Notes: generated by a model from the letters alone, not told the origin. A stretch of 64,000 bases of DNA from Ginglymostoma cirratum (GCA_024137785.1 JAHRHZ010000102.1:132901-196900); one strand, 5' to 3'; positions 10,661 through 64,000 are shown, counted from the first letter of the stretch. Numbers and translations: made by a program.

Positions 10661-10669
10661 AATCAAAAA

Positions 10670-16430: not shown

Positions 16431-16432
16431 AT

Positions 16433-20125: not shown

Positions 20126-20744
20126 AATCATTGAGCAGCTTAAGACAGGAATTGATGGATTTCTGAAGAGTATATTAACAAGTGTTATAAGAGTAAACTG
20201 TTATACCTTCTAAATTTATGCCAATGGGAAAGGTAAGGGAAAAGAAATGCAGCTTAGTTCGAGGAGCTCCACAGTCTCGAAAAAGCTGCGTTTCCCTTCT
20301 GATCAACAATGCGGGTGTGCCGGCACAGGCGCGATTGCAGCGGATCGAGAAGGCAGCTCATCAGCTCCCTTCTACAGGACAGAAATGAAGGAAATAAGAG
20401 AAACTTAACAAACTTTCATAATTGCAGTTACCCTCCTTTTCGCCACAACAGCAAATAACTGCGATTCGAATTCAAGCAGGATTTGATTTCACAGCAGCAG
20501 TGGCATAACAGTCTCCATTCGCTTTCAGTGGAAAGCGTGAACAACGTAAGTTGCCTGGAACTTGAAGCAGCAGTGCAACCTGCTTGTGCCCGAAATCATG
20601 TGGGGCCATTGCATGCCACAGCATCATGGAAACACAGTTTGGACGCTGACCCATTGGAGGATTTGTGCTGTCCGACATCATATATCAGTTTGCGAACAGC
20701 AACACATTTTGTTGCGTTCAACTTAAACGTAGATCCTCCCCACC

Positions 20745-20816
20745 GTGCTTCTACACAACCCATGCCTCCTAAGAGACTGGAACCTCAATCCTGCACCTCA
20801 GACCACAACGATCCAT
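20745..20816 (-). pseudogene. tRNA-Leu-derived remnant
   Basis: Minus strand gtggtctgaggtgcaggattgaggttccagtctcttaggaggcatgggtt matches the Leu(AAG/TAG) anticodon and variable arm. Confidence 0.6.
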
Positions 20817-21889
20817 TTGCTCAGATATGACATTTTCCGATGTTGCTACTGCAACACAACAACAGCGGAGGCACAGGGAAAGGCTTCGAGGATCCTTATC
20901 TCTGTCGTACATTTTCTGAGCTATGCGGGTAAGCCCGGTTACAATATCAATTTCCCACCAGATGCCGATAGCCCATCCATCAAAACAAACATCAATGCAA
21001 AGCTGAATCTACCTCGTGAGACTCGGTCGAGCAAAAAATATAATGCATCTTTGAGAAACTGTCTTCGGTTATGCTTCGATAAAGAAAGTATGAACTGCAC
21101 GAAATTTCTGGAACATAGATTTTCACTTTGGAGAATGATTTCGCTCATTGTTCGAAGCAGAACAGCTGTCGCGTTTATAAGTATTATTAATAAATAAAGA
21201 AAATAAAGCCCTTTCCTCACAGTTTGAACATGTGTTAAAATATGCACCATTCCAACGGCTTGCAATGTGCACAAGACTGGGAAGAGTAGAAGAAGATAGT
21301 GGGCACTGGGCACATTCTTTTTGTAACTCATATATTGGAGAAACAGGAAGATCAGCACCTTCTGTTATTTGTACTGCCATCTGTAAGCTTATGACTTTCT
21401 GTCTTACATTCCCACTCTTTGCTTTCCAGTTAAAGCTTGGATTCACCATCAGTCTGTATTTACACCAAGCAGCTAACTAATATGATAACTCTAGAGGCAG
21501 AGGGATGTCGAGTTAAGTTCGGGACAGAAGCAGGCAGCGAATCAGAGAGTGGGTAAATTGATATCAAGTATGACAACCAGAAAAAAAAATTATAACGGAT
21601 AATCTTGACGCATTGAATAAGATGCAGGAGCCAAAATAAATCACATGGTCCATTCTATCTGCTACCCCATTCCACGAGATCATGGATAATCTGATTAATC
21701 CGGAGACACGACTTGCATGCCTGGTCCACTTAATCCTTCATATCCTAAATAAGTAAAAATGTCTACTTGAGCTTTGATTATACTTATCGACCCAGCCTAA
21801 CTCTGTAGTGAAGAATTCCACAGATTCATCGCCTCTGAGAGAAAATGAATCCTCCTAGTCTCTGTCCTAAGTGGGTGACTCCTCAGAAC

Positions 21890-22033
21890 TGTTTCTTCAG
21901 AATTCTGAAGAAGGGTCTAGGCCTGAAACATCAGCCTTCCTGCTCCTCTGATGCTGCTTGGCCTGCTGGGTTCATCCAGCTCTATACCTTGTTATCTCAG
22001 ATTCTCCAGCATCTGCAGTTCCTACTATCTCTG
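21890..22033 (+). mobile_element. Penelope-like pLTR fragment with hammerhead-like motif
   Basis: ttCTGAAGAagggtctaggcctGAAAcatc preceded by the inverted ttcttcagaa; pLTR body follows. Confidence 0.75.
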
Positions 22034-22873
22034 ATGTGAAATCATGTTGAACAATCTGCAAGAATTCAGAATTATGTCCCTGATGCTCTCGTGTTTTCGT
22101 CTCGATACAACACGGTCCCCGGTCATGGAATAATGCCTTGTTTATTTTGTGCATATTCTCTGAAGGAAGGTGACTTTCAAAGCGTTTGAAAACTAAATGG
22201 TCACATTAGTTCTGGCAGAATCATTGGAGTGAGAGTTCAACTTTCACATCAGAGCTAGAGATCCCAGTCAGACATCAGATTGAGGAACAACACGGAAAAG
22301 AGGCTTTGGAGTTAAAGAGGAGGAAAAGCGAGGGACATGAAATCTTGGAAAACAGCACATGGGATCTGTCTCAAGAGTTGGAGCTCGAAGGCTCATAGTG
22401 GGTGCTAACTGGTCAGAATCTGCTGCCTGCAAGTTAAATCGTCCTGTTTTAACAATTACAACTCGCTTCAATTCGAAACTTTCATGAATGTTGCTGTCCC
22501 AAAATGATTCAATCATTCGCAAAATGGGAAACGCCCTTGGCTGGTGGGTTATTGTCACTCCTCAGAACTTTGTCGCACTCAGTGGATATATGTGAGTGCC
22601 TCTCTGTCGGTATCAAGTGGAGGAGAATTGAAATGTTGACTGAACAGCTACTTCAGTCAGTGTCGAGCCAGTTGGTCAGATTGATCCAAGTGCAACAAAT
22701 CGCTCCCCACCATCTTCTCAGGGGCAACTGGGAAGTTGCAATAAATGATGAAGTACTCACAGTCATGGGAAGAATTTAAAAGAAATGAGAAGCTCGAAGT
22801 TTCTTCAGATTGATTAATATTCTAATTCACTAAAAACACTAGTCATGACGATTTTGGCGCCTCAGCTTCGTTT

Positions 22874-22955
22874 TGTAGAGTGGCCGGTTGGTCTATGGCC
22901 CTGGATTTAAGTGCCAGTCTCTGTTGAATCGAGGGCTCGAAACCCACTGCTGTTA
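22874..22955 (+). pseudogene. tRNA-Leu(TAG-type) pseudogene, anticodon now reads TAA
   Basis: gtagagtggccggttggtctatggccctggatttaagtgccagtctct...gggctcgaaacccactgctgtta aligns over full length to vertebrate tRNA-Leu. Confidence 0.8.
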
Positions 22956-24885
22956 GAGTCGCTTGTGCCGTAAGCTGGGCAAGGCTAACTTTGTTATGTC
23001 GACTTATTTTCTTGGTCTTTGCAGTTACTCAGACCTTTGTCAGTTTCAGTGATGAAAGCGGTAAAATGAGCAACCGGGACTATAAACAGTGAGAGCTCCT
23101 CCTCAGATCTCTGCTGAGGGACCTTGCATGCCATGTTGGCTCCAGTTTCTGTGTCTCAACTGGTCAGTGGCTGAAGAAACTGTGGCTCGATACCACCCAC
23201 ATAGACAACCTCAGCGATTTCAGATCAAACAATTTACCGACCATGAACCTCCATTTCACCCACTAGAACGGGATGATGAGATTGGATTGAAACAGCGCCA
23301 TCAATGATTTACCTCAGCTCCAGTCGGAGTGGGACACGGACAAGTAACAGGCTCTGATGCCGTACTCTCAATCAAAGAGTGGTGTGACCCTTTGATGTTT
23401 TAGTTATAAACTGTCTGTCTGACACCTCTCTCACTGACACCTGATGCAGATACAGTGCTTCAGTTGCTTTGGGTCAAATAATTAAGGCTCCAAGTCCTTC
23501 TATTTAACCCGGTCAAATTCCAAGACAAGATTGAATTCAAAACACACCCATCAAAGACTCTCTCTTCCCCTGATCCACACAGAATGAGACAGAGACAAAC
23601 AGCGGGAGTTGACACTTCTCTCCAATTTCCCGCTGCCAGCAGAAAGCGGACACTGCAGCTTCAATCAGCGGCTTCCTGTCCATCCTGGGACACAGTTTAA
23701 AGAAACTCATTCTTCATGAACGTTTTCTCTTATGTAAAAGAGGCGAAGTAACTTTTGTTAAAATTGGCAATGACTGCAACAGATTCTCCTTGTCTTTAGA
23801 AGCTTTTTGACCAAATCCCTGCCTCCAAATTAGAAGCGGCAAGATTTTGTAATGTGAACAGCGATATAAGAACGAAGTCTGTTCACATTTAACGAAAAGT
23901 GGGAAAAAAACACACCTTGTTTGGATAATGAGGCAGCAGTGCTGTGAGGCGAATGTAGTAACCAATACACTGCAGAAACACAGCGGGCCCACCGACCCTA
24001 TTTTACATTGTCTTGGTCTATGATGCACAGGCTATCCAATCATCAATGACATTGCAGTTTCTAACGCATGAGACCTTCTCTCAGAGGACACCCACGCCTG
24101 CAGTGTTGGGTCTGTAGTTTGGTGATTCACCGAGTGGCTGGGAGTTCATTTATTTCTGGGGAAAGCGAGAATTGTCACCACCTGCTGCATCCAACATGTG
24201 AAGGAGCTATTTAAATGTCATTTGAAATTATTTCTGATACAACAGTATTAACACCGCCATGTCCCTTCCTCCACCAGCCAGAAATGCGTTTGAAATGCCA
24301 CATTTCTGTTTGTCCTTCCAGGTATTTAAGAAAGAACTTACAGAACCAGCTGATGTGAGCAATGTTCCAGTTTGGAAGGAAGACTGAGGTGGAGCTGTAC
24401 AAATTGCAGAGTGACCTGGAAAAAATGGGGCAGTAACACAGACAGTGGAGTGGCCGAATTATTACATTCTTTGCTCTAACTAGACTATGATTTTGAAGTC
24501 TGAAATGAAACAATATAAGCCAGGTTGGTGAAACCCTTGCTTTCTGGGGGTTGGTCTCTCCTGAGACTTCGTCTCTTCTTAGGCCTCTGTCACTAAAAGG
24601 GGAATGTGTCTGATCGCTTCCTTTTGTGGGTGAAAATGAGGTTCAGTTCCCCGAGATGGACATGAACAATTTTACCATCTCAAACTTCAGTCCCATTTAT
24701 TGTGTCTTTTGGAGATTAAAACATCACAGTGAAACCAAGATTGAGATGAACGCTTGAAACGTCAGAGCATACAAGGCCAATTTAAACGATGGGCACATAA
24801 AAACTCGATGATTTGACGCTTCGTAAGAGAAAAAAATATTCAAAGGCTGCATCACTAAGTAATAATGCACGTGCTTCTGTCCTCA

Positions 24886-24957
24886 TTCACGGTGGTCTAG
24901 TGGTTAGTATTTGGCACTTTCACCTCCGCGGACTGGTTGTCATTCTCGGTTAAGGAA
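24886..24957 (+). pseudogene. tRNA-Glu(TTC) pseudogene
   Basis: ggtggtctagtggttagtatttggcactttcacctccgcgg...cggttaaggaa; T-loop corrupted. Confidence 0.85.
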
Positions 24958-25449
24958 TCAGGATTGATTGTTCCTGACATGGACAATGGTAAAGGTGAAG
25001 CAGTTCTGACGGGAATCCTTTCGGATAAAGTAATGTCCCCGAGAACATGAGAGTCAATGCCCCAGCCTCTTAAAGAATGAAGTGGTGCCCGAACCCTCTC
25101 TGTTCAATCAGACAGTTCACCGTCCATTCTCCTCTGATTCTACTTCCCAAACAGATTCTAAAGATTCTTGAAGCTGAGACTGGGCGATTTGTTTTGTTTC
25201 TTTGCTTTTCCCTCGAGCAGCAATGATTGGGTCTATGGCTTTTGGAAACTGCAATGTACCCATGAGCAGCTCGTGGGACTATTCCAGCTTCCCCTTCTCT
25301 GACGAAGCCTGGGACATTGACTCTTGACATGTCACTGGTGACATTCACTGATAGGCGACAATGAAAGGGCTCTCGTTCCTGTAGAAATCAAACGTCATCG
25401 TGGCTTCAGAGAAGTGAGAAAGAGGTGTAATAAATTTGTACTTTGCACT

Positions 25450-25522
25450 CGAGCCATGTAGGAGTCAAACCTACAATCTTCTAGTCTGTGATCAGGCACG
25501 TTATACATTGCACTACTGGCCC
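25450..25522 (-). pseudogene. tRNA-Arg(ACG)-derived pseudogene
   Basis: Minus strand gggccagtagtgcaatgtataacgtgcctgatcacagactagaagattgtaggtttgactcctacatggctcg. Confidence 0.85.
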
Positions 25523-26599
25523 CTTGTGTGCTTTGCTTTTACATGCTATAGCTATGATGTTAATACAGATATAAGCAGCAATGGTAACATTCACAAGGTG
25601 AGCAGCCAGCAAATATAATCACAGTCACTGCTACACTTTGACAGCCCCGACTTTTTAATGCGGTGAGTTTCATTGGCAAAGAAGACATATTTGTACTCAT
25701 GGAACTGCCATTCAACTTATCGAGTTCGCTCAGCCATTCAATGAGATCACCACTGTTCTGATAAATCTCAACTCCACTTTCCTGCTTTTTCTCCACAACG
25801 TGAGATAAACTCGAGCCGACTCACTATACTGGATATCCTATTATTTTTCGGTAGTTTAGATTGATTTTAATGACCTGTGCGTATTTGCAGGAAATTGAAC
25901 AATATGAAACCAGTTGAAAAGCTCAGCTTGTATCTTCGCGGTTAGGCCACTGAGATTTTCTGCTTCCGGGCCCGGGAATTGGAATTATGTAATCGTCTGC
26001 AGCAGTGGTTACTTCCCTGTGTGAGAGAAATAGTGAAGTAACCGATGTAAAACTTGATTGAGGAAATACATCCAAGGTCGTAGCCCAGAAAAACTATATT
26101 ATTTCCACCTGAGTAGGATTTACATTTACCAAGTGAAAATAAGAAAAAAAGAGTTTTCATTTTGAAACATAACAAATGCGATACAACCGCTCAGCCCATA
26201 GAGCCTGCCACGCCATTCGATGAAATCATGGCCGGCCTCGTACTTCAATGCCATTTTTCTGCACGATCCCGAGGGTTCTTGATGTTTTTAATTGATTGAA
26301 ATCTGTCAATCTCAGTTTTGTTCAGTCTGAATGCTACACCTTCACAGCCTCCATGGCCCCGAATTCCATTAACTTTCTCCACTCATTTAATTCTGCCATT
26401 TGGCAAGAATTTCTATTGCGTACCTGGTGCTCCTCCTGGCATGCCCTCCAGCACTGTACTTATTTTGCTTTTCCTCGGGGCTCTTTGTGAAGCTTCATGG
26501 TCAGTACTCGACATTGTAGCCACAGCAACCTTTTCTCAAATCCGAATCACAGGAGTGTTTATTGACCCCGTTTTTTCCCTCTTAATATGTTCAATATTA

Positions 26600-29125: not shown

Positions 29126-29207
29126 GTCGACATGGCCGACTGGTTAAGGCAATGGTTTAGAAATCCATGGGACTTTCCCCAAACAGATTTGAATCCTGCT
29201 GACTACG
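29126..29207 (+). tRNA. tRNA-Ser(AGA)-derived gene, probably a pseudogene
   Basis: gtcgacatggccgactggttaaggcaatggtttAGAaatccat...gatttgaatcctgctgactacg, 82 nt; mutated T-loop and stems. Confidence 0.8.
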
Positions 29208-30241: not shown

Positions 30242-30315
30242 AACTCTGAGAAGGAAGTGGTCAGCGTGTTTGGCTTTTAAGTGAGAAGTCGAACATTCGA
30301 GGCCACACACGAAGA
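30242..30315 (+). pseudogene. Highly decayed tRNA-Asn-derived copy
   Basis: ctctgagaaggaagtggtcagcgtgtttggcttttaa...ttcgaggccac aligns loosely to Asn(GTT). Confidence 0.5.
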
Positions 30316-30757: not shown

Positions 30758-30836
30758 GGAGTCGCGGTAGTGGTTAAGGCAACAGACGTCAAATACATTG
30801 GGATGTTTTGTGCAGATTCGAATCCTGCCGACTACG
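30758..30836 (+). pseudogene. tRNA-Ser pseudogene
   Basis: agtggttaaggc...aaatacattggg...gcagattcgaatcctgccgactacg. Confidence 0.8.
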
Positions 30837-31319: not shown

Positions 31320-31392
31320 GAGTCAGGAAGGGGTCGAACCGACTCTCCACTGATCTGGCTGTCAGAAATGTTATCCATTGGGATTGGGGATA
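31320..31392 (-). pseudogene. Decayed tRNA-Arg copy
   Basis: Minus strand caatggataacatttctgac...gatcag...ggttcgacccc. Confidence 0.55.
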
Positions 31393-32329
31393 ATTGGCTC
31401 TATGCATATTCCTGGAATCAGTAACTGGGAGAATCAAGAAGATGCAATGCTGATGTCTCTGTGTACATCCGTGTGCAAACCCATTGCTTCTCTCTCCCTT
31501 TCTTGTGCCTTACATTCTATGTACCTGCTATCAAGGTAAAGATTTACTTCACAACCTGCCTGTGTTTGTATCAAGCATCTCATTGACCTTGGAGCTGGTC
31601 GGTCAGAGAGAGCTAGAGGTGAGACACGGACACAGACAGGAAGAGATGCGACATGAAAGTGTTTAGAGTCTGTCGTGTGTCAATTGTTTTTAGTGAGGGT
31701 TTTCTGCCGGGCGCTGTCTTGTTGGATTCCCAGGAGCTGCAGTGATTGGTTTGATGAGTTTTCGAAATTGAAAGTTGCACTTGATCAGTCCGTGGGACTA
31801 TTTCAGCTCACTGTCCATTTCATATCCCAGCTCACAGAAACATTTCTCATTGTCTGGAGAAGTCACTTGTGATCCACCAAAAGCTGCCTTTTGTCGCAGG
31901 AACGTTTGTGTGGGGACGGAGAGCGGACGTGAAGGTTGTGGAGCGGTATAATCCTGAGATGTCTGTCACTTTCGGGGATGTATCTGTGTGTGTCCCTCTG
32001 TGGATGAAAATGAAGCGGAGCTCCTCAAGGAGGTATTAACATAGTTTTACCATCTCAAACTTCAGTCCCATTTGATGCGTTATGTGAGATTAGAGAGATA
32101 AACTCATTGACATTTGCCTTGCAAAGTCAGAGCACACAAGGCTATGAACCAAATGCTGGAAACTAAGACTCGAACGGTTTTGACCTGCACTGAAACGGTG
32201 GGCCGAATGGTCTTCTTCCACGCTGTACAATGAAAATTAGTGATGGAGAAACTGATCTGCAGCGAAAATGATCACACATGACAACGCAAAAGCCGGTCAC
32301 GAAGAAAAGATACGACTTCTTGTTCGTGT

Positions 32330-32398
32330 TCCTTGGTAGTCTCTTGGTTAGGATTCAGCACTTTCACCGCCATGGCCTGAGATCCTCCCCACAAGGAA
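32330..32398 (+). pseudogene. tRNA-Glu(TTC) pseudogene
   Basis: tccttggtagtctcttggttaggattcagcactTTCaccgccatggcc; T arm damaged. Confidence 0.8.
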
Positions 32399-33720
32399 AT
32401 AGATGTTCTGTTGTAATACTCTTTGTTCGTGATGGCACTTCTGACTGATTTTCCAGCAGTTGACACCGAATCTGTTTTGTCCCAAAAGTTATCAATTAAC
32501 ATAAAAGAAAGAACTGTGACAATCTGACACAAAAACAGGAATTGGTAGAGAAACTCAGCAGGCATGGTAGCATCTGCAGAGGGAAACTGTTAACATTTCG
32601 GATCCATTTACCGTTCATCACTACCAGGTTAGCTGTGCATTTCTATTGTATAATACCAGGAGACATTATAAACTTTATCTTTCGAATCAGCATATCTTTC
32701 AAAATCACACACTCTCATTAGCTTACAAGCGTTAACTTTTCAACTTTATAGGGACTTGATCAGCACTCATGCTCCTTCTGTTGCCCTGAAGTGGTGCAAT
32801 CCTCTGCTTTTTTCCTGTTCATTTCGGTCAGTTAGCAGCCATGTCGAATGGAGAGCTGGTCCTTTCAGTATCTACAACAACATGTGCTTCTATTTGTCTC
32901 TCTTTGTCTCTGTGTATCCACCTGGACTTCTTTCACATTGTTCGACACTCCATCTGTATATACCCCTCATTTCCCATTTATGCTCTGTGCAAAGTCTGAA
33001 ATTAGGAGACACTTTGAGAATGGAGTGTTTCGTACTGGACTCACGTTCCTTGGATAATGTGTCTTTCAGTTATGACTGAAGTAAGGAGACATTTCTCGTC
33101 TCAAAAGATAATGAATCTTCAGAATTCAAAATTTAATTCCTAATCCACCAGAAAAAAAAAACACAATGCTGCCACAATTATAGGATTATAGCGATGTCTT
33201 TAGAGTTGGTGTAAAAATGTTTGAATGATGACAGCAGAGAATGAGAGTGATCAACTCGTGGTCTCTTTGCCATGACCACAACATTACACGTTAAGGCTGC
33301 ATTTTATCCTGCTTCACCTCATTATTCCGACCAAACTGAGAATGAAGGAATGAGAATACAAGTCAAGGAGAAGCAGAAGTGCTTGTGGAAGGCCAGAAAG
33401 GAACTTCATGACAAATACAGCAGTAAAAGAGGAGACCCCGAAGCAGCCTCCTGATGACAAATGTGTTTTCTTTGCCAGTAAAACTCACGGCCTCTCAAAG
33501 CGGGGACCATTGAAGTGAAGCAATGACGGATATTATCTTTGCTGGTTGTTCACACTGTGAATGTAACCATTGTTGCCCATGTTCGTGATAACACCACAAC
33601 TCTGCTGCATGTTAGCATCACACATAAACTGGAGATGGGCGCTGAAAACTGAGAGACCTCCAGCTGCGCAATGAGGCTGACTCCCTGGATTCGGAGCCTT
33701 GCCAGAGCTTCATGTTAATA

Positions 33721-34961: not shown

Positions 34962-35781
34962 TCTTTGCTTCTTACAGCCTTGCTTCCTGAAGTGAAGTGC
35001 AGCTCTCCAGCGCTATCAGTGAAATGAGCAGCTTCAGCTATGCCGAAAGCATGGCTTCTCTTCTGCTGCTTTGATTAAAATACTGGCTTCCAGTTTTGCA
35101 GTGAAAATTGTTTCCACTGCACTGGAAATTCCAAAGATCAGTTTGTAGGTGCAGCTGCTTGCATAATAAATGACAGGACTTGCAAAGGGGCAAACCCAAC
35201 TCCAATCCTGATCCAACAAGACTGTTCAGAGACACAGAATGAGCATGGTCACTTCCTGGGCAGCTCCATGTCAAATAGAGCTGAACCAGAATTAACTAAC
35301 TGTGAGGATACCACGGAAAACATCAGTGAAGTGTACTTGAACGTTACTCAATTGAGGAGGAAAATTATCTTCTTTTGTGACCACATGGGTTTATTCATTA
35401 ACATTTTCATTCTCGGTAAAAGAGGGGGAAAATTGTGAGCTTTCAGTGTGAGACAGAAGTGATCTGGGTGAACTCAGAAATGTGGGGCAGTCATGTGTTC
35501 TTTATCAAAGTATAAATGAACATACTTTCTTACAGGCACATGACATTTTTGGAACAACCGAATCTCGCAAGATGCGTTCAGCTTTCCGTTGGTGTTTGTA
35601 TTCGTTTAAGAGCTATCGGCATCTCGTGCGAAATTAATATTGTAACCAGGCATTGCCGAGCAGCGAAGAAAATGGACTAGGAGGAGAGCTTTCCTCCAAG
35701 CGTTTCCCTGTGCCTTCGCTTTAGTTGTGTGCAGTAGCAACATTGGAAAATATGGAAAATTGGAAAAAAACTGTAGGGTCT

Positions 35782-47246: not shown

Positions 47247-47265
47247 AACATCACAGGTAGCCTTG

Positions 47266-48521: not shown

Positions 48522-49190
48522 CGACGCAAGTAGCCCCTGCAAACAAACAATTAAATCGGGGTTCAGCAACTGTCGCGTCGCCCGGATGGTCAGCGCGAAA
48601 AGAGAAACTTCGGAAACCTCGTCCACGCCGGCAAGATATCCTAAATTAATTTAGCCCCATTTGCCAGCATTTGGTCCTTATTCCTTTAAACCCTTCCGGT
48701 TCATGCACGCATCCAGGTGCCGTTGAAATGTTGTCATTTCTCCAGCCTCCACAACATCCTCCGTCAGTTTATTCCATACATGCAGCAGCTTTTGCATGAT
48801 AAATGCCCCTCAGCTCCCATTTCATTTTCCCCTCTCACCTTAAATATATGTCCTGTAGTTTTGGACTCGCCCACCCGGTGAAAAAATATCTTGACGATTC
48901 ACTCTGTTCATATCCCTCATGACTTTATAAATTTCTCTAGCTTCTCATCCTCCGACCCTGCAGGGAAAGTTCGCCCAGCCTCTTCAGCTTCGCCCTAAAG
49001 TCCAAACCGTGCAACCCTGGCAACCACATTGTGAATATTTTTTGAGTAATTTTACGTGACTTTCTTTATTTCTCAATAATGGCAGTAAGGTTGGACAACA
49101 TCAATCTATTTGAAATTGAAAAGTACTACGTGATGGGCTGCAAATTTCAATGCTGTACGAAAATCAGCGGGCCCGACGGCAGAGTATCAT

Positions 49191-49263
49191 GTTTCTGTGA
49201 TGCAGTGGTTATCACATTCGCCTCACACGCAGAATGTACCCTATTGGAAACCACGCACAAGCT
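49191..49263 (+). pseudogene. tRNA-Val(CAC) pseudogene
   Basis: gtttctgtgatgcagtggttatcacattcgcctCACacgc; T arm degraded. Confidence 0.8.
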
Positions 49264-50945
49264 GTAGGGTTTGCCCTGCCATTACCAATAACAGGCTTCT
49301 GCACTGATGTTGACAGAGCTTTCCTGTTTGCTCTTCTCGTCAGCCACCCTTGTTTTGAATGTATTCGGACATGTCTGTGGTTGTGTCGAAATGGAATACA
49401 ATTCCACTGAATTGCAGTGCTATTTTTCGTTCAGTTTCTCTCCTGCTTGGTTCTGAATATGTGCTGTTTGTACTGCACAGATGGTAATCATTTTTAAACG
49501 TACACTTGGAGTGTCCTGATACTTTCTGCAGAATAGTCGTTCTGCATTTGTTATCCGTGCAAAGGCATTCTGGTTCAATGCCAAGTGGAAGCCTGATTTT
49601 GCTGGTGTCATAGTGCACCACGGAATCCTGATTTACCCTCTCTTTCAAATGCACCTTAAGTTAGTCTCTGAGAACCTACTTCCGATACTGTCTGCCATGT
49701 CCCAAACTGAATGAATCAAATCTAGAAGTCCTCAGTCACGTTTTGCAGTCTAGAAACATGTTGGCATTTTTTAGCACTGGACACATTAGCGTCTCATAAA
49801 GTCAACGAGAATGAATGGATTTACGGACTCTGAAAAACCTCTTGACTCACGCTTTCGTTAAGCCCCTAATATTCAGGCATGCTCTGAAATCTAAGCCACG
49901 TTGGAATTGAAGCTGAGATCAAGACTGTCAGGCTACCAAATGACATTGTATCCATTTTGTCATGATATCACAGAGGAGTAATAAAATGCAAATAGCCAAG
50001 AATCAGAAAGTGAGGCACATGCGGCTCTGGTGAAGCAAATTCTATCTCATTTAGTCAGAAACAAGGTACGTTAAGGTGACCTAGAGCTTTTCACATCCAG
50101 AAGAAAGTACTAACACGTGATGTTAGCACCTCATTTAACAAATCTCATCGCAGCTTACGTTCTGTTAATACGTTTAGAAACTGCCTTTTGTGCATCTCTA
50201 AATAAGCACCGTGGAGATTAATAAAATGTCGTGAGTCGCATTCCTTCATTTCCCACAGAGGTTTCCAATGCAGCGGCAGCCATCAGACATTTGCTCGTGT
50301 CCAGGACGGGAAAGCTCCGCAAACAAAATTGCATGGTTAAGGATAATGACAAGGGAAATGGCAACTGATTCCTGCATCAGGGATCGAACAGCCACGCAAA
50401 CTGATCTGTTGTTCTCGGATTATAATCCGAACTCAGCTTTTGAGATGGAGGACTTTCTTTGAATCATTTATTCTACAAAACAGGCGTGATAACTGTAAGT
50501 ATGCTGCAAGGTATTATTTAGTACACGATGGCCTCCTCAGCTTTGTGCATTTTCCCTGTAGTCCGGTTCTTTTCATGTTACGTGTAAACGCATCAGTTCT
50601 TCTGTTTTGAACAATGACAGAAACCATTTTCCAAAGCGAAAATCTAAATTACAGAAATGTCGTGATGTTCATGCTGTCTTTACCGAAGCAAAACCGAAGA
50701 CAGTTTCTCAAAGATGCATTACATTTGTTGCTCTAACGATTCTCACGAGGTAGATTCAGTTTTGCATTGATGTTTGTTATGATTGCTGGGCTATCGGTAA
50801 CTGGTGGGAAATTTATATTGTTGCCGGGCATTGCCTGCAGCTACGAAAATGTGCGAGCGGGATAGGGATCCTCGAAGCCGTTCCCCATGCCTTCGCTGTC
50901 GTTCTGTCAGAGTCGCAACATCGGAAAATGTCATATCTGAGCAAG

Positions 50946-51015
50946 TGGTTCGTCGTGGTCGTCGGCGCTGGATTGAGGTTCCAGTCTCTGAGGTGGCGTG
51001 GGTTATGCCAAAGCA
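50946..51015 (+). pseudogene. tRNA-Leu remnant
   Basis: ggcgctggattgaggttccagtctctgaggtggcgtgggtt. Confidence 0.65.
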
Positions 51016-51848
51016 CGGTCGGGATGAGCTGCGTTTATGTTGAAAGCAACAAAATGTCTTTGCTGCTCGCAAACTGATCTCAGATGTGGGACATCTCAGA
51101 CCCTCCAGCGGGTCAGCGTGCAGACCGTGTGTTTACATGGTGCAGTGGCATGGAATGTCTCCAGTATGATATTGGGCACAAGCAGGCTGCACTGTTGCTT
51201 CATTTTCCAGGCAAGTTGCGTTGTTCACCCTTTTCACTGAAAGTGAATGAAGATCGCTATACCACTGCTGCTGTGAAATCAAATCCAGCATTAATTCTAA
51301 TCGCAGTTATTTGCTGTGGTGGTGAAAAGGAGGGTAATTGCGATGTGAAATTTTATTAAATTTCTCTCATTTCCTTCATTTCTGTCCTGAAGAAGGGAAC
51401 TGATGAGCCGCCTTCTCGATGGGCTGCACTCGTTGCCGTGCGGGCACACCCGCATTGTCGATCAGAAGGGAAACCCAGCCTCTTTGAGACTGTGGTTGCG
51501 AATCGCCACTTTTCATGGGTCATTCGAATCCTGTTCTTTTTTTTTCTTTATGAGCATTTTCCGGAAAGTGGCGTTGGACTAAACTCCCAGTATATTTGGA
51601 AGCGCAGTTTAACATTGACCTGCTGCCACTTGTGCAAGTGGTTCGTGACGCAAACAAGTCGAGGTGTCTCGCTGACAGCATTCATGCTTTGGTGTGTCTG
51701 AAACTGCGTTCGCATTTTCATTTTTGCTTCGTTTGCGCGTCAAGACCTGTCTGTTTTGGGCTTTGCTCGAATAATGAGAAGCTTACACGGTTATCTTCTT
51801 GCAGCCAAAAAACCACCCTGCTAGCGGGCATCGAAGTTAATGGTGAAG

Positions 51849-51922
51849 GAGCCCTTCATGAACTCAAACTACCAACCTTTTGGTTAACAGCTAAACTCGC
51901 TAACCAATTGCGCCACAGAGAC
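51849..51922 (-). tRNA. tRNA-Asn(GTT)-derived gene, probably a pseudogene
   Basis: Minus strand gtctctgtggcgcaattggttagcgagtttagctGTTaaccaaaaggttggtagtttgag; 3' arm mutated. Confidence 0.85.
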
Positions 51923-52641
51923 ACCTTCCAGGAGATCCTGCAAACAAACAATTAAACCGGGGTTCAGCAACTGTCGCGTCGTCCGGATTGACAGCGTGAA
52001 AAGAGACACTTCGGAAACCTCGTCCATGCCGGCCAGATATCCTAAATTAATTTAGCCCCATTTGCCAGCATTTGGTCCTTATCTCTCCAAACCCTTCCGA
52101 TTCATGCACGCATCTGGATGCCTTTGAAATGTTGTCATTTCACCAGCCTCCACAATTTTCCCCGTCAGTTCATTCCATACACGCAGCAGCTTCTGCATGA
52201 AAAATGCCCCTCAGCTCCCATTTCATTTTTCCGATCTCACCTGAAATATATTCCCTGTAGTTTTGGACTCGCCCACCGGTGAATAAAGACCTCGACCATT
52301 CACTCTTTTCATGTCCCTCATGACGTTGTAAACTTCTGTAAGTTCTCATCCTCCGACGTTGCAGGGAAATTTCGCCCTCCAGTCCAAGCCGCACTACACT
52401 GGCATGAACGTGATTGACAGAATGATACAGGCTGGAAACATGAAAGGCTCAGAGAACAATGCAGGAAAATACTGAAAATGTGTATAGCAGTAATCAATTC
52501 AATTTAGCACTCTGTAGTTCAGCAATTTCTTCAAAAACAGTCAGGAACCACTTGTCAAGATATTCATATAATACTGGTTCACAGCTGATTTGTCAACCGA
52601 TAAGGGATAGTCGGGATTATGGAACCTTTACAGCAAGTGTC

Positions 52642-56068: not shown

Positions 56069-56142
56069 GAGTCCATAGCTCAGTGATTAAGAGTGCTGGC
56101 CTTGTTAACCAACAGTCACGAGTTTGAATCTCACTAGAGCCT
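56069..56142 (+). tRNA. tRNA-Thr(TGT)-derived gene, probably a pseudogene
   Basis: gagtccatagctcagtgattaagagtgctggcctTGTtaaccaacagtcacgagtttgaatctcactagagcct. Confidence 0.8.
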
Positions 56143-56863
56143 CTGGCAACTTTGGTACACCAGCTGCTTCCAAGATCGAAACAAGCCCTTTAAATATTAG
56201 TTGAAATTATAACAATATCATTTCGTCCACAGCCCAGAAATGTGTTCGAAATTCTACCTTCCCGTTTGTCCTTCCACGGACTTGAGGAAGACCATTCGGA
56301 AAGACAGAAAGCAGCGATGTGAGCAATGTTTGGCTGGAAGAGCGAGGCGAAGCAGGAAAACTGCAGAGTGACAGGTAAACAACGGCAGAGGAACACAAAC
56401 CAGGGGCAGCCGCCGAATGCTCCCTTTTGTTGCTGTAAACAGATTCTAGTTTTGAAGTCTGAAATGAGACATCAGATCCAAATGAGTGAAATTTTGCTTT
56501 CTTGGGCTTGCACTCTCCTAAAGCCTCTGGCACTCTCGTGGAAAGTGTCCTTGTTTGTTTCCTTCTGTGGGTGAAAATGGGGTTCACTTTCCCAAGTAGG
56601 CATGAACATAGTTTTCCCATTTCAAACTTATGTCCCATTGGTAGTGATGTGAGATTAAAATGTTACAGAGAAAATAACATTGAAATGAACACTTGAAAAT
56701 GAGAGCACATAAAGCTAAAAGGCCAAGTTCTGGAAACTGGGACTATCGGCCTCTTTCCATGCTGTAGAAACTCAATGATGCGATCATTTTTCAGAAGCAA
56801 CTAATTACCAATAAAATAAAAGCCAGAAGCTGTGTTATTCAGAAATGACGCAAGTCTGCTTGT

Positions 56864-56935
56864 TTGGAGGTTGTCTAGTGGGTAGGGTACAGGACGTTCA
56901 CCACTGTTGCCTGGGCTCGAGCCCTGCTTCGGGAA
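56864..56935 (+). pseudogene. tRNA-Glu(TTC) pseudogene
   Basis: ggttgtctagtgggtagg...TTCaccac...gggctcgagccc...gggaa; same flanks as the 24886 copy. Confidence 0.7.
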
Positions 56936-57404
56936 TGAAGATTTCCTATCCTCACAACGTCACAGCAAAGGCCGGGAAGTGTCTGGCGAGACTCTTTTCA
57001 ATGTCTCGGATCAATGAATGTCCTGGCCCCTTAAAGGAGGGAAGGTCGTTTGACTGTTTTTGCTCAGTCGGACAGTTCACCATTTATGCGCCTCTGATTC
57101 TCAGTTCTAAAGATTCACAAAGTTGAGATTAGTGGATTTCTAAATTCTGTTTCGTTTCCATTCCAGGGAACTGCAGTGATTGGATAGTTTGGGAAATTGA
57201 AAGGTGCGAAAAAACAATGTTTTGTACTACTTCAGCTTCCCCTCCTCTGATGACGCTGGGACACTGACTCCAACGTTCTCAGTGATATTTAATGATGTGA
57301 GGCAGTGAAAGTATTCCAGGTCCTGCAGATCAGATACAAACCTGACCAGGGCATGAGAACTGTTAGAAAGATGAGGTTGGTAATTTAAAGAAGATGCAAA
57401 TTGC

Positions 57405-57479
57405 GCTTCATCCAGTTAAGAATGAACCTCCAGTCAGCTGATTCAAACCCAGGCGCGTGATCTGTTGCACGGCTGGCTC
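57405..57479 (-). pseudogene. Very decayed tRNA-Arg copy
   Basis: Positional paralog of 25450-25522 within the duplicated module. Confidence 0.45.
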
Positions 57480-59154
57480 TCTACATATCTACTGTTAACA
57501 TGCTACAGAGTTGTGGTATTAACAGGGACATGAGTAGCAATGGTAACATTGAGCAACCAGCATTGAACAATATTGAACATACAGCAAAGATAATCACCGT
57601 CACTGCTTCAATTCAATGGTCCCTACTTTGTGAAGCGGCGAATTTCACTGTCAAAGGAAACACATTTGTCCTCAGGTGCCTACTTCGGTGCCGCCTGTTT
57701 CTCTGCTGGAACTTCCCATCGTTTTACTCACAGCCAGTCCAGTATTTTATGCTCCAATCCAGTGAAATGTGTTCTCATGCTTTGTGTGATGGTCTGTTCA
57801 AGTCATGACCCAGAACAAATTCGGTGAGAAGTTTCTGGTAATTTATAACCTGGCCCCTGAAATCAGACGAGTTGAACAATAACGTTAATGATGCTGGCTT
57901 TTCACTGCAGCTCAGTGCCTCCAAACAGGACCCAGTTGGCATCAGCTTGTTCTCTACCTTCCTGCAGTACGTCTGCTGAACAACACCAGATTATCACATC
58001 TCCACTTTCTTTACATTGAAACTTGGGTGACAATATGAATCATTTCAAAGCTTAGGGAGAGAAACATTTCTTGTGAAGGTGGTTCTGATGTGAAGAAATG
58101 ACACAAAAACTTGTTCAATCAGGTCGCAAGGGTTACTGTCAGTATATCTGGTATTCCAGTCAGGATTCAGAGCTTGCGTCAACAAGACTTGGGCACAATT
58201 CAAAGTCCGGAAATGAAAATTATTTTCTCACGTCTGAATTATCTGAAAGAAAAAAGAATTCCTGATTACAAAGAGAACACTCACTCTGAATCTGCCAGAA
58301 TCAGCCAAGTGAGAGTTTCTTTCAGTCTGAAAGGACAATGACGACACATACGCAGTAAAACTGTCACTCCAAGCAACTCACCAATCTGAGTTGGAAATAC
58401 ACCACTGTTCCTTCAGTGTACCTGGGTGTAAATCTTGGAATTTCTTCCCTAATGGCAAAGTGGCTGTACTTACATGCCAAGAAGTTCAAGAAAGTGGCTC
58501 ATCACCTCTACCTATGCATTAATGAGGGATGGACAATCAAATTTCGGATTAAGATTGTGATTTCACACAAATAGTAATTATCCTTTGCCAGTTTTACTTC
58601 TCCAGAATAAAGTCTGGGTCATTCATTGTGGAGACACGGAAACAGTCTTATCCCACCCACTGCAGAGACATCCGCGTCACAAGAAGCCAGCTCTCCTCAA
58701 CCCAGGGCCACCTCCTTTCGAGCCTTTCCACTTCTTGTCTGTTCCCTAATATCTGATCGTGCCAGAGCCGAGACTCTACTTGTATTCCTGATCTTTACAT
58801 TGAATTCTGATTATTTCAATGTCTCAGATCAGGTAATGACACTGAGAACATCAGAGTCAATTTCCCCACGCCTTAAAGAAGGGAAAGGGGCCTTGACTTA
58901 TTCTGCTCAATCAGAAAGTTCACCCTTTACTTTTCCTTGAGTCTGAATCACAAAGTCTGACGAAAGATTTATGAAGCAGGAGACTGGGTTAACTCTTTTG
59001 TTTCATTTCCACGTTTGCACCAACCAAATGACAACTTTGGAGCTGTTCATATTGTTGGTGGTGGGTAGTGATGGGGTTTGGTAGTTTGATTAAACTGATA
59101 GCGAGAAATTCTTTCCATTGACCAGAGTCAGTAAACGGAGTACTTTCATTTAAG

Positions 59155-59375
59155 ATAACAAGGTGTGGAGCTAGATGAACACAGCAGGCCAAGCAGCATC
59201 ATAGGATCAGGAAAGCCTGCGGTTTCGGGCCTAGACCCTTCACCTGAAAAAAGGGTCTCTGCCCGAAACGTCAAGCTTTCCTGCTCCTATGATGTTGCTT
59301 GGCCTGCTGTGTTCATCCAACTCTACACCTTGTTCTATCGTATTCTCCAGCATCTGCAGTTCCTATTGTCTCTGA
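59155..59375. mobile_element. Palindromic Penelope pLTR insertion with a 14 bp TSD and hammerhead-like motif
   Basis: Inverted arms 59155-59240 and 59246-59338; TSD tactttcatttaag at 59141-59154 and 59376-59389; ctgaaaaaagggtctctgcccGAAAcgtc. Confidence 0.85.
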
Positions 59376-59721
59376 TACTTTCATTTAAGGCTAAAAAAAG
59401 AGACGGAGTTGCATTTTTATCGTGCTTATAATCACCAATGAGTACGCCAGTTTACCATGAGCAGACATCATTTGAAACTTGATTCATTATCCTCCGAATG
59501 TGATATAAAGTCATAAGTCACACAACACCAGATTACAGACCAACAGGTTTATCTGAAACCAGGAGCTTTCAGAGTATGGTTCCTTCCACAGGTGAAGTGG
59601 ATGCATGTAATATATTCTCAGCAAAGACCCTTTCCGGTCATAATCTGAAATTGAGTTCATAAAGAGCTGCCTCCATGTTCTCCCAAACATTTACAACAAA
59701 AACCTATGTCAAAAACAACAA

Positions 59722-59806
59722 AGCCTCGTACAGGATTCAAACCGGCAACTTCTCGCACTCACGACATCGAGCTGAAGTGACAATCAGACCACGAGACCAA
59801 CGACCC
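59722..59806 (-). pseudogene. tRNA-Pro-derived copy with a 13 nt insertion at position 37/38 (59758-59770)
   Basis: Minus strand gggtcgttggtctcgtggtctgattgtcactt CAG c [tcgatgtcgtgag] tgcgagaagttgccggtttgaatcctgtacgaggct. Confidence 0.8.
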
Positions 59807-60719
59807 AGACTGATGAAGTCCCACTTAACAATAAATCAGACGCCACTCAGGTAGTGATAGTGTCCCAACCTGAGATGTAGGAGACCAGAGTTCAAGTTCT
59901 AGCTGCTCCAGAGTTGTGTAATAACATATCTGAACATGTTGATTGGACAAAAATAATATTCCCCGTTGCTTCAGGCAGTGAAAGCAGCAAAGATCATCTT
60001 CTCGTTTTGAACCCTGGGACGGTGCTATTTGACCCTTCCGCTGGGACAGGGTTCTCTCCATTGGCAGATGCACTAAATCATTTCCCTCCACGGGCAGGCA
60101 GTGCTGGGAGATGGTATATACTCTACAGCACCCTCTCAAGCGCTGGAAGAGAGATGGAACAGAACGGTGGAATCAGGCTTGTGCAGCAAGTAATAAATGG
60201 CAGTTTGGAACTTCCGTTGAATGACATTTATCAGAGACAGAGAGAAGCTTGGAGAGCTGCTGAGAAACAGAGAACACGAAAATGGAGATGAGTCACTTCA
60301 GCAACTTACAATGGGATTTTTCTGTGCATGCTGTTTGGTGTTCAGATTTCGTCTGCACACAACAACCCTGCAAGTAACACTTTGGCAAGGCGGAAGTCTG
60401 TTCCTTTGCTGCATCCAGAGCAGGAGTTAAAATCTGTCACCAACAGTCTCAGATTAACAGAATCTGAATGAAACACTGACTCACTAATTATCATCCCCAA
60501 CGGCCCTGAGTTGCGGGGCTGCAAACAGTACAACGCGGAAGGGAGGTTTAAAAATGAGCCTTTGTTTCTCCCTCACCCGATCCGTCTCAAAGGCTGGGAG
60601 TGTGACGTCACCAGCGCAAGGCCATTCAGCCCATCGAGCCAGGGCGACCCTAAATCTCTTGTAATTTCCCTGAAGTAACGGTGATATATGTCCCCAATAG
60701 TGGTGTACGCACCGTAATG

Positions 60720-61012
60720 CTCATAGAATCCCTACAATGTGAAAACAGACCCTGCATTCCAACAATTTTAGATCACACCACAAAGCATCTCACCCATTCC
60801 CATTCCTCCCATAATCCACACATCGCCGAACACTGCGGGCAATTTAGCCTGGCCAAGCCATTGAACCTGCATATCTTTGGACTGTGGGAGGAAACCAGAG
60901 AACCCACAATAAGCAGGGAGAATATGCAAACTTCACATAGACAATCTCCCAAAGGCCCAATTGAAGCCAGGTCTGTGGCGCTGTGAGGCAACAGTGCAAA
61001 ACACCGAACCAT
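60720..61012 (-). mobile_element. HE1-like V-SINE
   Basis: Minus strand: tRNA head gcactgttgcctcacagcgcc, V-domain ggtttcctcccacagtccaaagatatgcaggtt, CR1-like tail tgtagggattctatga. Confidence 0.85.
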
Positions 61013-62447
61013 TGTGCCTTCGGATGCTGTCTCCGACATGCTGATCCTTTTATCATTCACATCTGAAACGGCGTGTGGAATTACTGCCAGGCATGGAAAA
61101 AAACTGCACCTGATGTGTTTCAACTTCCCCAGTTTATTCTCATCTCAGATAAGAGGTTTTACTATTGAGTATACAGCAGATGACAGAGAACAGCAGAAGA
61201 CCTTCATAAGCATGTCACCTCCCCTGTGTAAACTTGGCCAGTGTATCAATATGAGATATTTATTTTGGACGCATGAAGCTGTGGGAAGCGGAAAACTGAT
61301 CAAAATACAGATTGCAGCACGGAACACCAGAGGCCTGTAACAAATAGCAGAGATTAGTTTCGAGTTTTCGATCGCCGGAGTATGGTTCTAGCACGTTCTC
61401 GCTGCGTCACTCTGTTGGTCTAGCATGTAGCTTTTTTCAACAAGTATTCAGCTTTTCATCTGCTGTGTGGCACGTACCTTACAGAATGATGTCAAAAGAT
61501 CTTCACTGTTGTTATGTAATATTCTGTTGCTTAGACATGTCGCGCTTGTGTAAATATTACCTTTGTCTAAGTTCCCACATTCTGTTGGTCGAGCTGTGAT
61601 TCCACGCAGAATCACAAAATTTGTCAAAACGTAGACGGAGGTCATGCAGCTTGCCTCAGCTGTGGGTGCGCCAGGTCTCCACAATAAGTACACGTGTGTC
61701 TGTTTTAATATCAGTCTCTTGCCTTCTCCCTGTAACTCTGCATATTGTGACTTTTAACAGAACCATCGAATTCCATTTTGTGTAGCATGAATATGCCTCT
61801 TTGTCGCAGTCAGACAGGGATTTACAGATCCACTTAGTCATTGCACAAAAACGTTCTTTGTCATGTATTCCTTACTTCTTTTCCCCATGACTTTAAACCT
61901 GTGCCTAATCGGTTTTGATCTTTGCAGGTGTGTGAGCATTTTCACCCCTTTATTTCCTCTGCTCACACCCGTCACAACTTGGAAAGCTTCAATCAGAACA
62001 GTTTTCCTTTCCCCAAGGAGAACTATCTCAACTTTCCAATCTATCTTTCTGGCTGACATTCTTAACACACATCACCATTCAAGCGAACCTGTTCAGCACT
62101 GTCTCCAATCACTTTCTGTCTCAGCTTCCTGAAACTTCACACAGACATAATTGAGCAATAACGCAGCAGCGAATTCATTCTGATGAATAGTCTTGGCCCA
62201 GAATGCCAACTCCTGTCCTCCTCTGATGCTGCCTGATCCGCTGTTTTGCTCCAGCTCCACACTGTCGCGATTCTGTCTCCAGCACCTGCAGTTCTTACAA
62301 TCTCCAGATTGCATGGCAAACATCGAGAAACACTCTTTTTCGCTTTGAACAAGTGTTTCTCTGCTCTGTGTTCACTGTAATGTGAGACCGGACTCATTTT
62401 TTGGAAAGCTGATCTGGTAGTTTAGTGAAAGCTGACATAGGAAATCT

Positions 62448-62537
62448 GGGCTCATCCGCGATTCGAACGCAGGATCTTTCGCACGTCAGCGGCATACAAG
62501 ACCCAAAACGAGAATCACTCCACTACTCCAACGAGCC
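62448..62537 (-). tRNA. tRNA-Pro(TGG)-derived gene with an 18 nt intron-like insertion at 37/38 (62484-62501); probably a pseudogene
   Basis: Minus strand ggctcgttggagtagtggagtgattctcgttt TGG g [tcttgtatgccgctgacg] tgcgaaagatcctgcgttcgaatcgcggatgagccc = 72 + 18 nt. Confidence 0.85.
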
Positions 62538-64000
62538 ATCTTGCTTGAAGCTGGCTTTCTTCTTCCCCGTGTACGATATATTCACTGCAAACACTCTCAG
62601 GGATATCAGATTGAGCTCGATCTCATTGAAATCAGATCGCATCATTTTGATGTGTTTTGATCTGCTTCCCGTAAGTCCTTGTACCCGAAATAAATATCTC
62701 ACATTGATACATGGACCAAGTTTACACAAGTGAGGTGACATGCGTCTGAAGGTCTGAATGGCCTTCTCCTGCTCTGTGTCGATCTGCGATGGTCTTATTT
62801 GTTAAAACTGTTCTATGAGATCGCAGGAATAAAGTGTTGAATTTGAAAAACATCAGTTGTAGTGTTTTACGAGCAAAGGACGCCCTACAGTAATTCCCCA
62901 TGTCGTTTCAGAAAGTAGCATCCTTGAGGTGAAATGAAAAGTTGTGAATGACAAGAGGATCGGAGACAGCATGAAGACACAGATACAGTTCAGCATTATT
63001 AGGACGGATATCACCGATTATGAATAACCACGGAGAGATACAATTGAAAGAGAATCGCCGTGGACTCGATGGGCTGAACAGCTTCTTTCTCCCCAAGAAT
63101 GACGCCATGGGATTATGACGTCACTCTCCCTGTCTCTGTGATGTCGAGATGCCGGTGAAAAGTGTCACTTCACCTGACGGAGGAACAGCGCTGTGAAAGA
63201 GTGTGATTTCACATAAACCTGTTGGACTATAACCTGGTTTCATGTTACTTCTGATTTGGTTCACTGCCTCTGTGACAGAGCAGGCGAGTGAGAAACAATG
63301 GCTCATTTTTAACCCTCCCTTCCGAGCTGAACTGTCTGCAGCTCCACAGCTCAGGAACTTTGGGGATGACTCTCAGTGAGTGAGTGTTTCACTTGGATTC
63401 TCTTAATCTGGGACTGTCGGTGTCAGATATTAACCTCTGCCCGGTCATAACAAAGAAACCGACGTCCGCGTTGCAAAAGACTTTCTGCAAGATTGCTGTG
63501 TGAAGTCGAATCCTGAAAACCACACAAGCTGCTCAGAAAGATCCCGTGTAAAGTTTCTAAAGGGAATAGTCTTCTGTTTCGATTTCTCTCTTTTCTAGCA
63601 GCTCTGCATCCGTCTTTCTGTCCCTGATTAATGTCATTTGATGAAAATTCCCAATCGTCGTTTATAATTTCCTGACGTCTGATTCTGCCTCTTCTGCTTC
63701 TTCACTCTTCCAGTGTTCAAGAAGGAGCTGCAAAACGTATACCATCCCCAGGCACTGCTTGCCCGTTGAGGGAAATGGTTTGATCCATCCACAATTGAAG
63801 ACTGCCCAGTGCTTGGGGAAAGGAGCAAATAGCAGCAGCCCGGGAGCAGGGACAGAGTGGGAAAAAGATGTACGTTGTTGCTTTCACTGCCCGAACTGAG
63901 ATTTTTTTTTAATGTAAGCAGCCTGTTCAAAGATGTTATTACATACCTCTGGAGCATATAGAACTTGAAACCGGTCTCCAATATCCAAAGATCACTGTAT

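Follow-up and report, generated by a model that had tools for sequence, protein, structure and literature searches.

Transfer RNA (tRNA) genes of vertebrates are known to lie in clusters of rapid turnover, where mixed isotypes in both orientations, local duplication and pseudogenisation are found (PMC2888827; PMC4981973). In elasmobranchs, tRNA clusters such as that on red stingray chromosome 28 have been described, and intron-containing tRNA loci are reported to be abundant in sharks (bioRxiv 10.1101/2025.06.08.657570), while in Antarctic notothenioid fishes units made of tRNA genes and transposable elements form multi-gene cassettes that are copied with their flanks beside a protein-coding cluster (PMC12527291). 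Here we analyse a stretch of 64,000 bases from the shark Ginglymostoma cirratum (GCA_024137785.1, JAHRHZ010000102.1:132901-196900; the whole stretch is called the window) that contains a dense group of decayed tRNA genes, very probably the remains of a multi-isotype tRNA gene cluster in which all genes have become pseudogenes that decay neutrally. The locus shares mixed isotypes, both orientations, local duplication and pseudogenisation with the vertebrate clusters, but those surveys dealt with loci detectable by tRNAscan-SE, with pseudogenes among live genes, whereas none of the 34 copies found here is alive and nearly all are below threshold; moreover, many genomes are without large numbers of partly degraded tRNA copies (PMC2888827; PMC4981973 for the surveys). 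It belongs to the same animal group as the elasmobranch clusters and resembles them in its clustering and in having putative intron-bearing loci, although, unlike in those clusters, no histone gene was seen in this window, and relics of this kind would have been excluded from that study because loci scoring under 50 were dropped (bioRxiv 10.1101/2025.06.08.657570). The notothenioid units, in turn, are near-perfect and recent, whereas the shark cassettes are 60-88% identical and dead (PMC12527291). In the literature searched, which included few subscription papers, no vertebrate tRNA cluster was described in which every gene is dead.

The relics span positions 20,575-62,537, with about 34 copies in 42 kb, 19 of them on the + strand and 15 on the - strand, and they fall into eleven classes (Leu 8, Val 6, Arg 5, Glu 3, Pro 3, Ser 2, Asn 2, initiator Met 2, Lys 1, Thr 1 and Ile 1). 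An initial annotation of this DNA had proposed about 30 decayed tRNAs of ten classes, spaced about every 1.5 kb on both strands. The cluster and its distribution over the two strands are thus borne out, while initiator Met has to be added as a class and the spacing is closer, one copy per 1.2 kb. The tally comprises 30 copies identified by profile score, three by flank paralogy and one that is probable; two further candidates were rejected.

Standard tools recover little of this, since ARAGORN calls one gene in the window and Rfam gives six tRNA matches in total (20.1-29.6 bits). Isotype profiles were made solely from the intact, intronless standard tRNAs of 121 metagenome loci retrieved by a tRNA motif, from which 462 ARAGORN genes were taken (the motif scan of viral contigs gave no matches). 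They yielded 23 matches of at least 12 bits, every one within 20,300-64,000, one of them being the head of a short interspersed element (SINE) at 47,095 and another doubtful (30,260). This threshold was reached by none of six null sequences. No relic was found in 1-20,299, where the single profile match scored 9.3 bits, below the 12-bit threshold. Weaker copies came from a second profile round and from flank projection. Of the 36 candidates, 29 reached at least 12 bits in a leave-one-out test, against 8.3 for the best match in the reversed window; the models contain other window copies and close paralogues thus support each other, so that the faint Leu relics, three in number, and the Val halves are in part vouched for by one another. 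The seven candidates below threshold were Thr 56,069, accepted by Rfam and by an isotype profile; Val 20,575, Arg 54,215 and Arg 57,408, accepted through paralogous flanks and alignment; Ile 44,810, a probable relic that is clear by eye and marginal by score; and the pieces at 30,243 and 42,600. Isotype names derive from profiles and anticodons, those of Thr and Ile in part from likeness to the vertebrate genes. With introns allowed and thresholds lowered, ARAGORN gave noise everywhere, and without introns it separated from shuffles only at 85-90% of threshold (16 vs 0-8; 7 vs 0-1). Small-window Rfam scans detected Pro 62,448 and gave no match for Ile 44,810 or Pro 59,722. Alignment led to the rejection of a possible Arg copy at 33,620. 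The copies, with the two doubtful pieces and one SINE, are as follows.

20,575-20,640 (-): tRNA-Val relic with an internal deletion in common with three paralogues; alignment and paralogous flanks, only 4.1 bits in leave-one-out
20,740-20,822 (-): tRNA-Leu relic, T-arm lesion in common with 50,942; 22.2 bits, alignment
22,875-22,956 (+): tRNA-Leu relic; 37.5 bits
23,910-23,980 (-): tRNA-Val(CAC) 5' half; 10.6, 15.2 and 12.8 bits (profiles, second round, leave-one-out)
24,886-24,958 (+): tRNA-Glu(TTC) relic; 13.7 bits by profile, 27.0 bits in leave-one-out
25,450-25,522 (-): tRNA-Arg relic; Rfam 25.3 bits, leave-one-out
29,126-29,207 (+): tRNA-Ser(AGA) relic, 17 of 82 positions unlike the fetched reference; Rfam alignment, profile
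30,243-30,313 (+): doubtful tRNA-like piece, uncounted; profile 12.9 bits, leave-one-out no better than the reversed window
30,758-30,836 (+): tRNA-Ser relic, 17 of 79 positions unlike the reference; profile, reference comparison
31,320-31,392 (-): tRNA-Arg relic with damaged 5' end and perfect B box; second-round profile, leave-one-out, box scan
32,329-32,400 (+): tRNA-Glu(TTC) relic; 22.8 bits
34,889-34,961 (+): tRNA-Lys(CTT) relic; 29.1 bits
35,782-35,864 (+): tRNA-Leu relic, 19 of 82 positions unlike the reference; Rfam 27.0 bits
35,979-36,045 (+): tRNA-Val relic with the common internal deletion; second-round profile, alignment, leave-one-out
36,362-36,440 (+): tRNA-Leu relic, 3' three quarters, heavily decayed; reference comparison, leave-one-out, support mostly via its two paralogues
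38,365-38,434 (-): tRNA-Pro(CGG) 5' part, 3' end gone; 25.0 bits, alignment
40,041-40,116 (-): initiator tRNA-Met relic; 25.8 bits in the second round, 25.4 in leave-one-out, reference comparison
42,600-42,671 (-): doubtful tRNA-like piece, uncounted; by eye, no match in profiles, second round or leave-one-out
44,810-44,904 (-): probable tRNA-Ile(TAT) relic, the anticodon being followed by about 20 extra bases; alignment, 8.9 bits, marginal against the null, no Rfam match
45,975-46,048 (+): tRNA-Arg(ACG) relic; 20.4 bits
46,692-46,775 (-): tRNA-Leu relic with a D-arm deletion; 23.0 bits, alignment
47,090-47,250 (+): tRNA-headed SINE, outside the cluster's relics; depth 8,133 in a related run against 0-32 on relics and flanks
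47,724-47,790 (+): tRNA-Val relic with the common internal deletion; alignment, flank paralogy, leave-one-out
48,148-48,227 (+): tRNA-Leu relic, heavily decayed; reference comparison, leave-one-out
48,448-48,521 (-): tRNA-Asn relic, the best preserved; ARAGORN, Rfam 29.6 bits, fold, box scan
49,190-49,262 (+): tRNA-Val(CAC) relic; 25.0 bits
50,942-51,022 (+): tRNA-Leu relic, T-arm lesion in common with 20,740; 22.3 bits, alignment
51,130-51,190 (+): tRNA-Val relic with the common internal deletion; alignment, flank paralogy, leave-one-out
51,548-51,628 (+): tRNA-Leu relic, heavily decayed; 11.1 and 12.2 bits (first and second profile round), reference comparison
51,848-51,921 (-): tRNA-Asn(GTT) relic; 26.7 bits
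54,215-54,287 (+): tRNA-Arg relic, heavily decayed; paralogous upstream flank, alignment, 1.0 bit in leave-one-out
56,069-56,142 (+): tRNA-Thr(TGT) relic; Rfam 20.1 bits, Ile profile 17.8 bits, isotype by anticodon
56,864-56,936 (+): tRNA-Glu(TTC) relic; 13.4 bits by profile, 21.6 in leave-one-out
57,408-57,480 (-): tRNA-Arg relic; flank paralogy on both sides, 9.6 in the second round, 7.6 in leave-one-out
59,722-59,806 (-): tRNA-Pro relic with a 13-base insertion in the anticodon loop; 18.8 bits, alignment
61,345-61,416 (-): initiator tRNA-Met relic; 14.2 bits by profile, 21.2 in leave-one-out
62,448-62,537 (-): tRNA-Pro(TGG) relic with an 18-base insertion directly 3' of the anticodon and a perfect B box; Rfam 23.7 bits, profile

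Every one of the 34 copies is pseudogenised and none is intact, as the initial annotation had stated. Their Rfam scores do not exceed 29.6 bits, whereas those of 29 matches in four reference loci range from 41.9 to 71.2; the cloverleaf was absent in the four relics that were folded alone, and broken pairs were seen in three Rfam alignments. When 12 relics were compared with the nearest fetched Ser, Leu and initiator Met genes, 21-46% of positions differed, the Leu and initiator Met values being upper bounds because the fetched references are not the true parents. CpG sites had changed more often than other sites (42/103 vs 127/522, in eight copies against the fetched references), and C>T and G>A changes showed no strand bias in the comparison (30/169 vs 33/209). 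Stem or B-box damage had been claimed for each copy; the B box is in fact perfect in three of 29 relics (290/318 references) and has one mismatch in nine more. A perfect A box is kept in 8/29 relics vs 283/318 references, both boxes are perfect in a single relic, about 0.8 being expected from the separate rates, and TTTT lies within 40 bases 3' of 7/30 relics, against a background of 20%. Nothing in these counts suggests selection on promoter elements.

Self-comparison of the window revealed, in 20,269-63,985, blocks of 0.3-1.3 kb with 60-88% identity, some direct and some inverted, that form a patchwork. The term array, used in the initial annotation, overstates the order of the region: a tandem array with a regular unit was discarded, as no head-to-tail period up to 500 exists in the window. 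Two cassettes recur, Leu-Val-(Leu-Asn-end of a long interspersed element, LINE) and Glu-Arg, and the principal blocks are these.

47,722-48,976: youngest duplicated block (Val, Leu, Asn, LINE end); partner 51,129-52,377, 85% identical, self-comparison
20,269-21,183: Leu-Val cassette, inverted duplicate of 50,579-51,495 (84%); third copy 35,475-36,582 (66%)
22,586-23,450: Leu block, inverted duplicate of 46,203-47,079; 69%, self-comparison
24,266-25,699: Glu-Arg cassette, duplicate of 56,222-57,674; 64-71% in pieces

Long paralogous flanks had been attributed to the copies in general, and they were found with a same-isotype partner at 20 of the 34 loci tested, a set that includes the two doubtful loci and one faint Leu relic and excludes the other two faint Leu relics. 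Flanks are shared by 21 of 51 same-isotype pairs vs 17 of 510 different-isotype pairs, these 17 being mostly cassette neighbours or common repeats. Neither CCA nor a run of at least six A was present directly 3' of the relics at any of the 30 ends read, which confirms the reported lack of CCA and poly(A) tails. In a check for target-site duplications, 11 of 30 relics shared a word of 6-9 bases up- and downstream, roughly what chance would give by our estimate, and old duplications would be eroded. Four Val copies carry one common deletion in the alignment and two Leu copies (20,740 and 50,942) one common T-arm lesion, and these were therefore copied after their death. Read depth runs into thousands over the SINE and over LINE ends vs 0-32 on relics and their flanks, in a single run of a related organism that covers 44,600-52,400 only, where the lack of cover on several relics is not read as absence. 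These paralogous flanks, the missing CCA and poly(A), the low copy number and the insertions described below uphold the view that the copies spread by duplication of DNA and not by retroposition.

A LINE 3' end stands at the same place in the three Leu-Val-Asn cassettes (36,716-37,089, 48,618-49,044 and 51,991-52,340) and hence must be older than the first of the duplications; from the 36-kb copy the Asn gene has been lost. We take this LINE end to be a CR1 element. Younger retroelement copies, 94-97% alike in the self-comparison, were inserted later. An Arg-family upstream flank at 33,418-33,617 has no recognisable gene next to it; the gene seems to have been deleted or erased. Besides, 59,874-60,594 and 63,266-63,985 form an inverted duplication of 72% identity with no assigned relic inside, and a weak tRNA-like or SINE-like head (59,841-59,919, +) adjoins it.

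The duplicated blocks also carry a possible record of past activity. Divergence between paralogues rises from about 0.20 in the outer flanks to 0.34 within 20 bases upstream of the genes, 0.33 in their bodies and 0.31 just downstream, and the upstream 20 bases were less alike than the outer flank in seven of seven pairs, each copy being used once. Under three settings, 73, 76 and 58 of the 140 upstream bases of these pairs were unmatched vs 34-38 expected (p <=0.001). In three pairs that were dead before copying, 8-10 of 60 were unmatched vs 8.6 expected, one of these pairs having an excess. In reading these figures it should be kept in mind that the groups were set after alignment and flank results, that Leu 50,942 is in both groups and that the pairs are few. 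At active tRNA genes the inner 5' flank diverges about four-fold faster (PMC6130373), and transcription-associated mutagenesis is likewise accompanied by raised divergence in the 20 bases 5' and a smaller rise 3' (PMC6130373; PMC6961574). The upstream excess resembles this known scar of tRNA transcription, with the difference that the published signal comes from orthologues of living human, mouse, fly and Arabidopsis genes and ours from dead paralogues, in seven pairs and without transition bias. Going by the inner-flank divergence, we lean towards the idea that many copies were still transcribed after duplication.

Insertions in the anticodon region were seen in three copies. In Pro 62,448 an insertion of 18 bases follows the anticodon directly with each of the eight references used, at the canonical intron site to within one base and, in our own reading, with an A at the purine position; a canonical intron lies one base 3' of the anticodon and has a purine third from its end that pairs with base 32 (PMC10275265). 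In Pro 59,722 the anticodon loop is enlarged by 12-13 bases, placed 0-5 bases from the intron site depending on the reference, and the two Pro insertions do not resemble each other significantly (p 0.12). In Ile 44,810 an intron of about 20 bases is probably retained. The families that bear introns in humans are Tyr, Ile, Arg and Leu (PMC10275265), and no account of Pro introns in sharks was met in the literature searched, few subscription papers being among it, although a figure or the supplements of bioRxiv 10.1101/2025.06.08.657570 may already show them. The retention of the Pro and Ile insertions fits the copying of DNA rather than of mature RNA.

This bears on whether the copies could be heads of tRNA-derived SINEs or processed tRNA retrocopies, which we regard as extremely improbable. 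SINEs do share with the relics a tRNA-like sequence of attenuated structure, more than 9,500 high-scoring tRNA-Ala repeats are known in the elephant shark (PMC8450103), and two genuine SINE copies lie in the region, one of which scores as a tRNA. However, SINEs are high-copy elements with one type of head and a common tail, and only those two are present (PMC8450103 for the SINE features), whereas the relics are of eleven isotypes and have no common tail, and they show neither the depth (over 44,600-52,400) nor the 3' ends that such an origin would leave; for the copies with paralogous 5' flanks it is refuted. Scarcely more credit can be given to the initial suggestion that residual boxes bind TFIIIC and that the relics were retained as barrier or insulator sites beside the GPR139-like receptor gene that precedes them. 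It is true that tRNA genes can serve as chromatin barriers (PMC2888827) and that a few B boxes are perfect or nearly so, but perfect B boxes are at chance number in the window (10 vs 9.39 expected, three of them inside relics), as is the coincidence of both boxes, and terminators are at background. In addition, the B box is ruined or absent in the two relics closest to the receptor, a perfect one first occurs 16 kb from that gene, and the receptor is one of a large multigene family. A third alternative, that we are looking at the decaying edge of a live tRNA array continuing past base 64,000, is compatible with the preferred explanation and would only add context to it; it is possible, if somewhat doubtful. 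The 72% paralogous blocks reach the window's end, and elasmobranch clusters can exceed 300 loci across many megabases (bioRxiv 10.1101/2025.06.08.657570). Nevertheless, there is no gradient of preservation along the region, relic scores rising towards neither end (Spearman -0.29, p 0.20, 22 copies), and no young copy among the 34 nor any duplication above 88% around a relic was found, as would be expected beside an expanding array.

A further alternative is that genes released from selection stayed transcriptionally active and accumulated mutations faster than the DNA around them until the promoters inside them failed, which would explain why no copy is intact. In five pairs with homology on both sides, bodies differ at 118/357 columns vs 555/2,503 in the outer flanks (p <=0.006, four alignment settings). 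The excess persists when only sites outside CpG-type change are counted (81/236 vs 521/2,228, in eight pairs that reuse copies), and flank divergence is hardly tied to GC content. The two Asn copies differ at 22 positions, each having changes of its own, and the block that holds them is 12% divergent. That bodies outpace flanks would not be expected of genes formerly under selection and suggests that they decayed fast once released. Against this alternative, dead-first pairs have some body excess as well (0.18 in bodies vs 0.12, gaps counted; p 0.008-0.36 by setting); one of the five pairs is without excess, the parent isoacceptors may have differed within a pair, and transversions are up as much as transitions, unlike in the published signature. 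Since dead-first pairs share part of the excess, CpG sites changed more and transversions rose equally, we consider self-erasure of this kind unlikely. The same low standing is given to a wider proposal, in which the flanks of the silenced cluster would record which copies were transcribed and when, RNA polymerase III (Pol III) would have mutated the bodies faster than neutral DNA after selection lapsed and until promoters broke, and a Pro family with a canonical intron would have been preserved.

In our preferred explanation, the dead and neutrally decaying cluster, genes with their flanks were multiplied by local direct and inverted duplications at several dates, and Pol III may have continued to transcribe many copies after the older ones, as the inner flanks would indicate. 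The tRNA structure was lost in all copies, and the B box and terminator in most, and the common lesions show that some dead genes were recopied as passengers. Redundancy with live clusters elsewhere may have lifted selection, and methylation-type CpG decay along with ordinary mutation could have wiped the genes while retroelements kept inserting. This agrees with evolution by birth and death, proposed initially and the standard model for tRNA clusters (PMC2888827; PMC4981973), and the cluster would be without present function. Some points weigh against this explanation. The 14 remaining loci of the 34 have no same-isotype flank paralogue inside the window, so that their mode of origin is only deduced; the references are close only for Ser, Leu and initiator Met, and none is a shark parent gene; and neutrality is read from decay, as no orthologous locus was compared between species. 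Furthermore, Asn 48,448 keeps perfect A and B boxes with TTTT 7 bases downstream, although its anticodon reads ATT and its anticodon stem is broken; at most this copy could still be transcribable.

The 'death' half of tRNA birth and death is visible here at unusual density, and as standard annotation discards such sequence, counts of tRNA turnover in sharks probably fall short. Should the upstream scar be borne out, paralogous dead genes would reveal past Pol III activity from sequence alone, and the decay rate of tRNA genes after selection stops would become measurable, unlike in living genes. Were the self-erasure reading true, tRNA genes would erase themselves.

In positions 1-19,500 there are fragments of LINEs, the receptor gene and a minisatellite with a 38-base unit, and the receptor frame is located as follows.

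14,302-15,228 (+): GPR139-like receptor reading frame; 7tm_1, rhodopsin family, 5.3 kb before the first relic

Among 2,083 matches, its best near-full-length ones, at 84-87% identity, are to 'probable GPR139' of whale, zebra and bamboo sharks, which marks the genome as carpet-shark-like; the frame has 308 open codons without ATG and is probably a second exon. The minisatellite (16,453-19,486) is decayed, with more than 50 copies, and lies between the receptor gene and the relics. A palindrome of 228 bases, 83% self-complementary, occupies 11,524-11,751 and is possibly a miniature DNA transposon. The CpG observed/expected ratio is 0.58 in 20,300-64,000 vs 0.35 in 1-20,299, as if the former had been unmethylated or protected for part of its history.

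The two tRNA-headed SINE copies, at 60,780-61,020 (-) and 47,090-47,250 (+), with copy depth known for the second only, are presumably HE1/V-SINE elements. A young retroelement fragment at 39,233-39,850 has a 126-base palindrome, a 104-base direct repeat and a 120-codon frame without Pfam match, with further copies at 4,818, 21,908, 28,340, 31,001, 37,717, 41,119, 59,153-59,378 (also palindromic) and 62,177. The 104-base repeat contains what we take to be a hammerhead-ribozyme-like core typical of Penelope-like elements. Rfam microRNA matches at 39,233-39,360 and 59,183-59,308 were rejected as palindromes of the retroelement ends, far under the cut-offs. Among the metagenome contigs, five eukaryotic ones of 5-8 kb (L004, L010, L040, L063 and L068) carry 32-47 tRNA genes each, with nearly every anticodon present once, that is, a near-complete tRNA set in a compact block.

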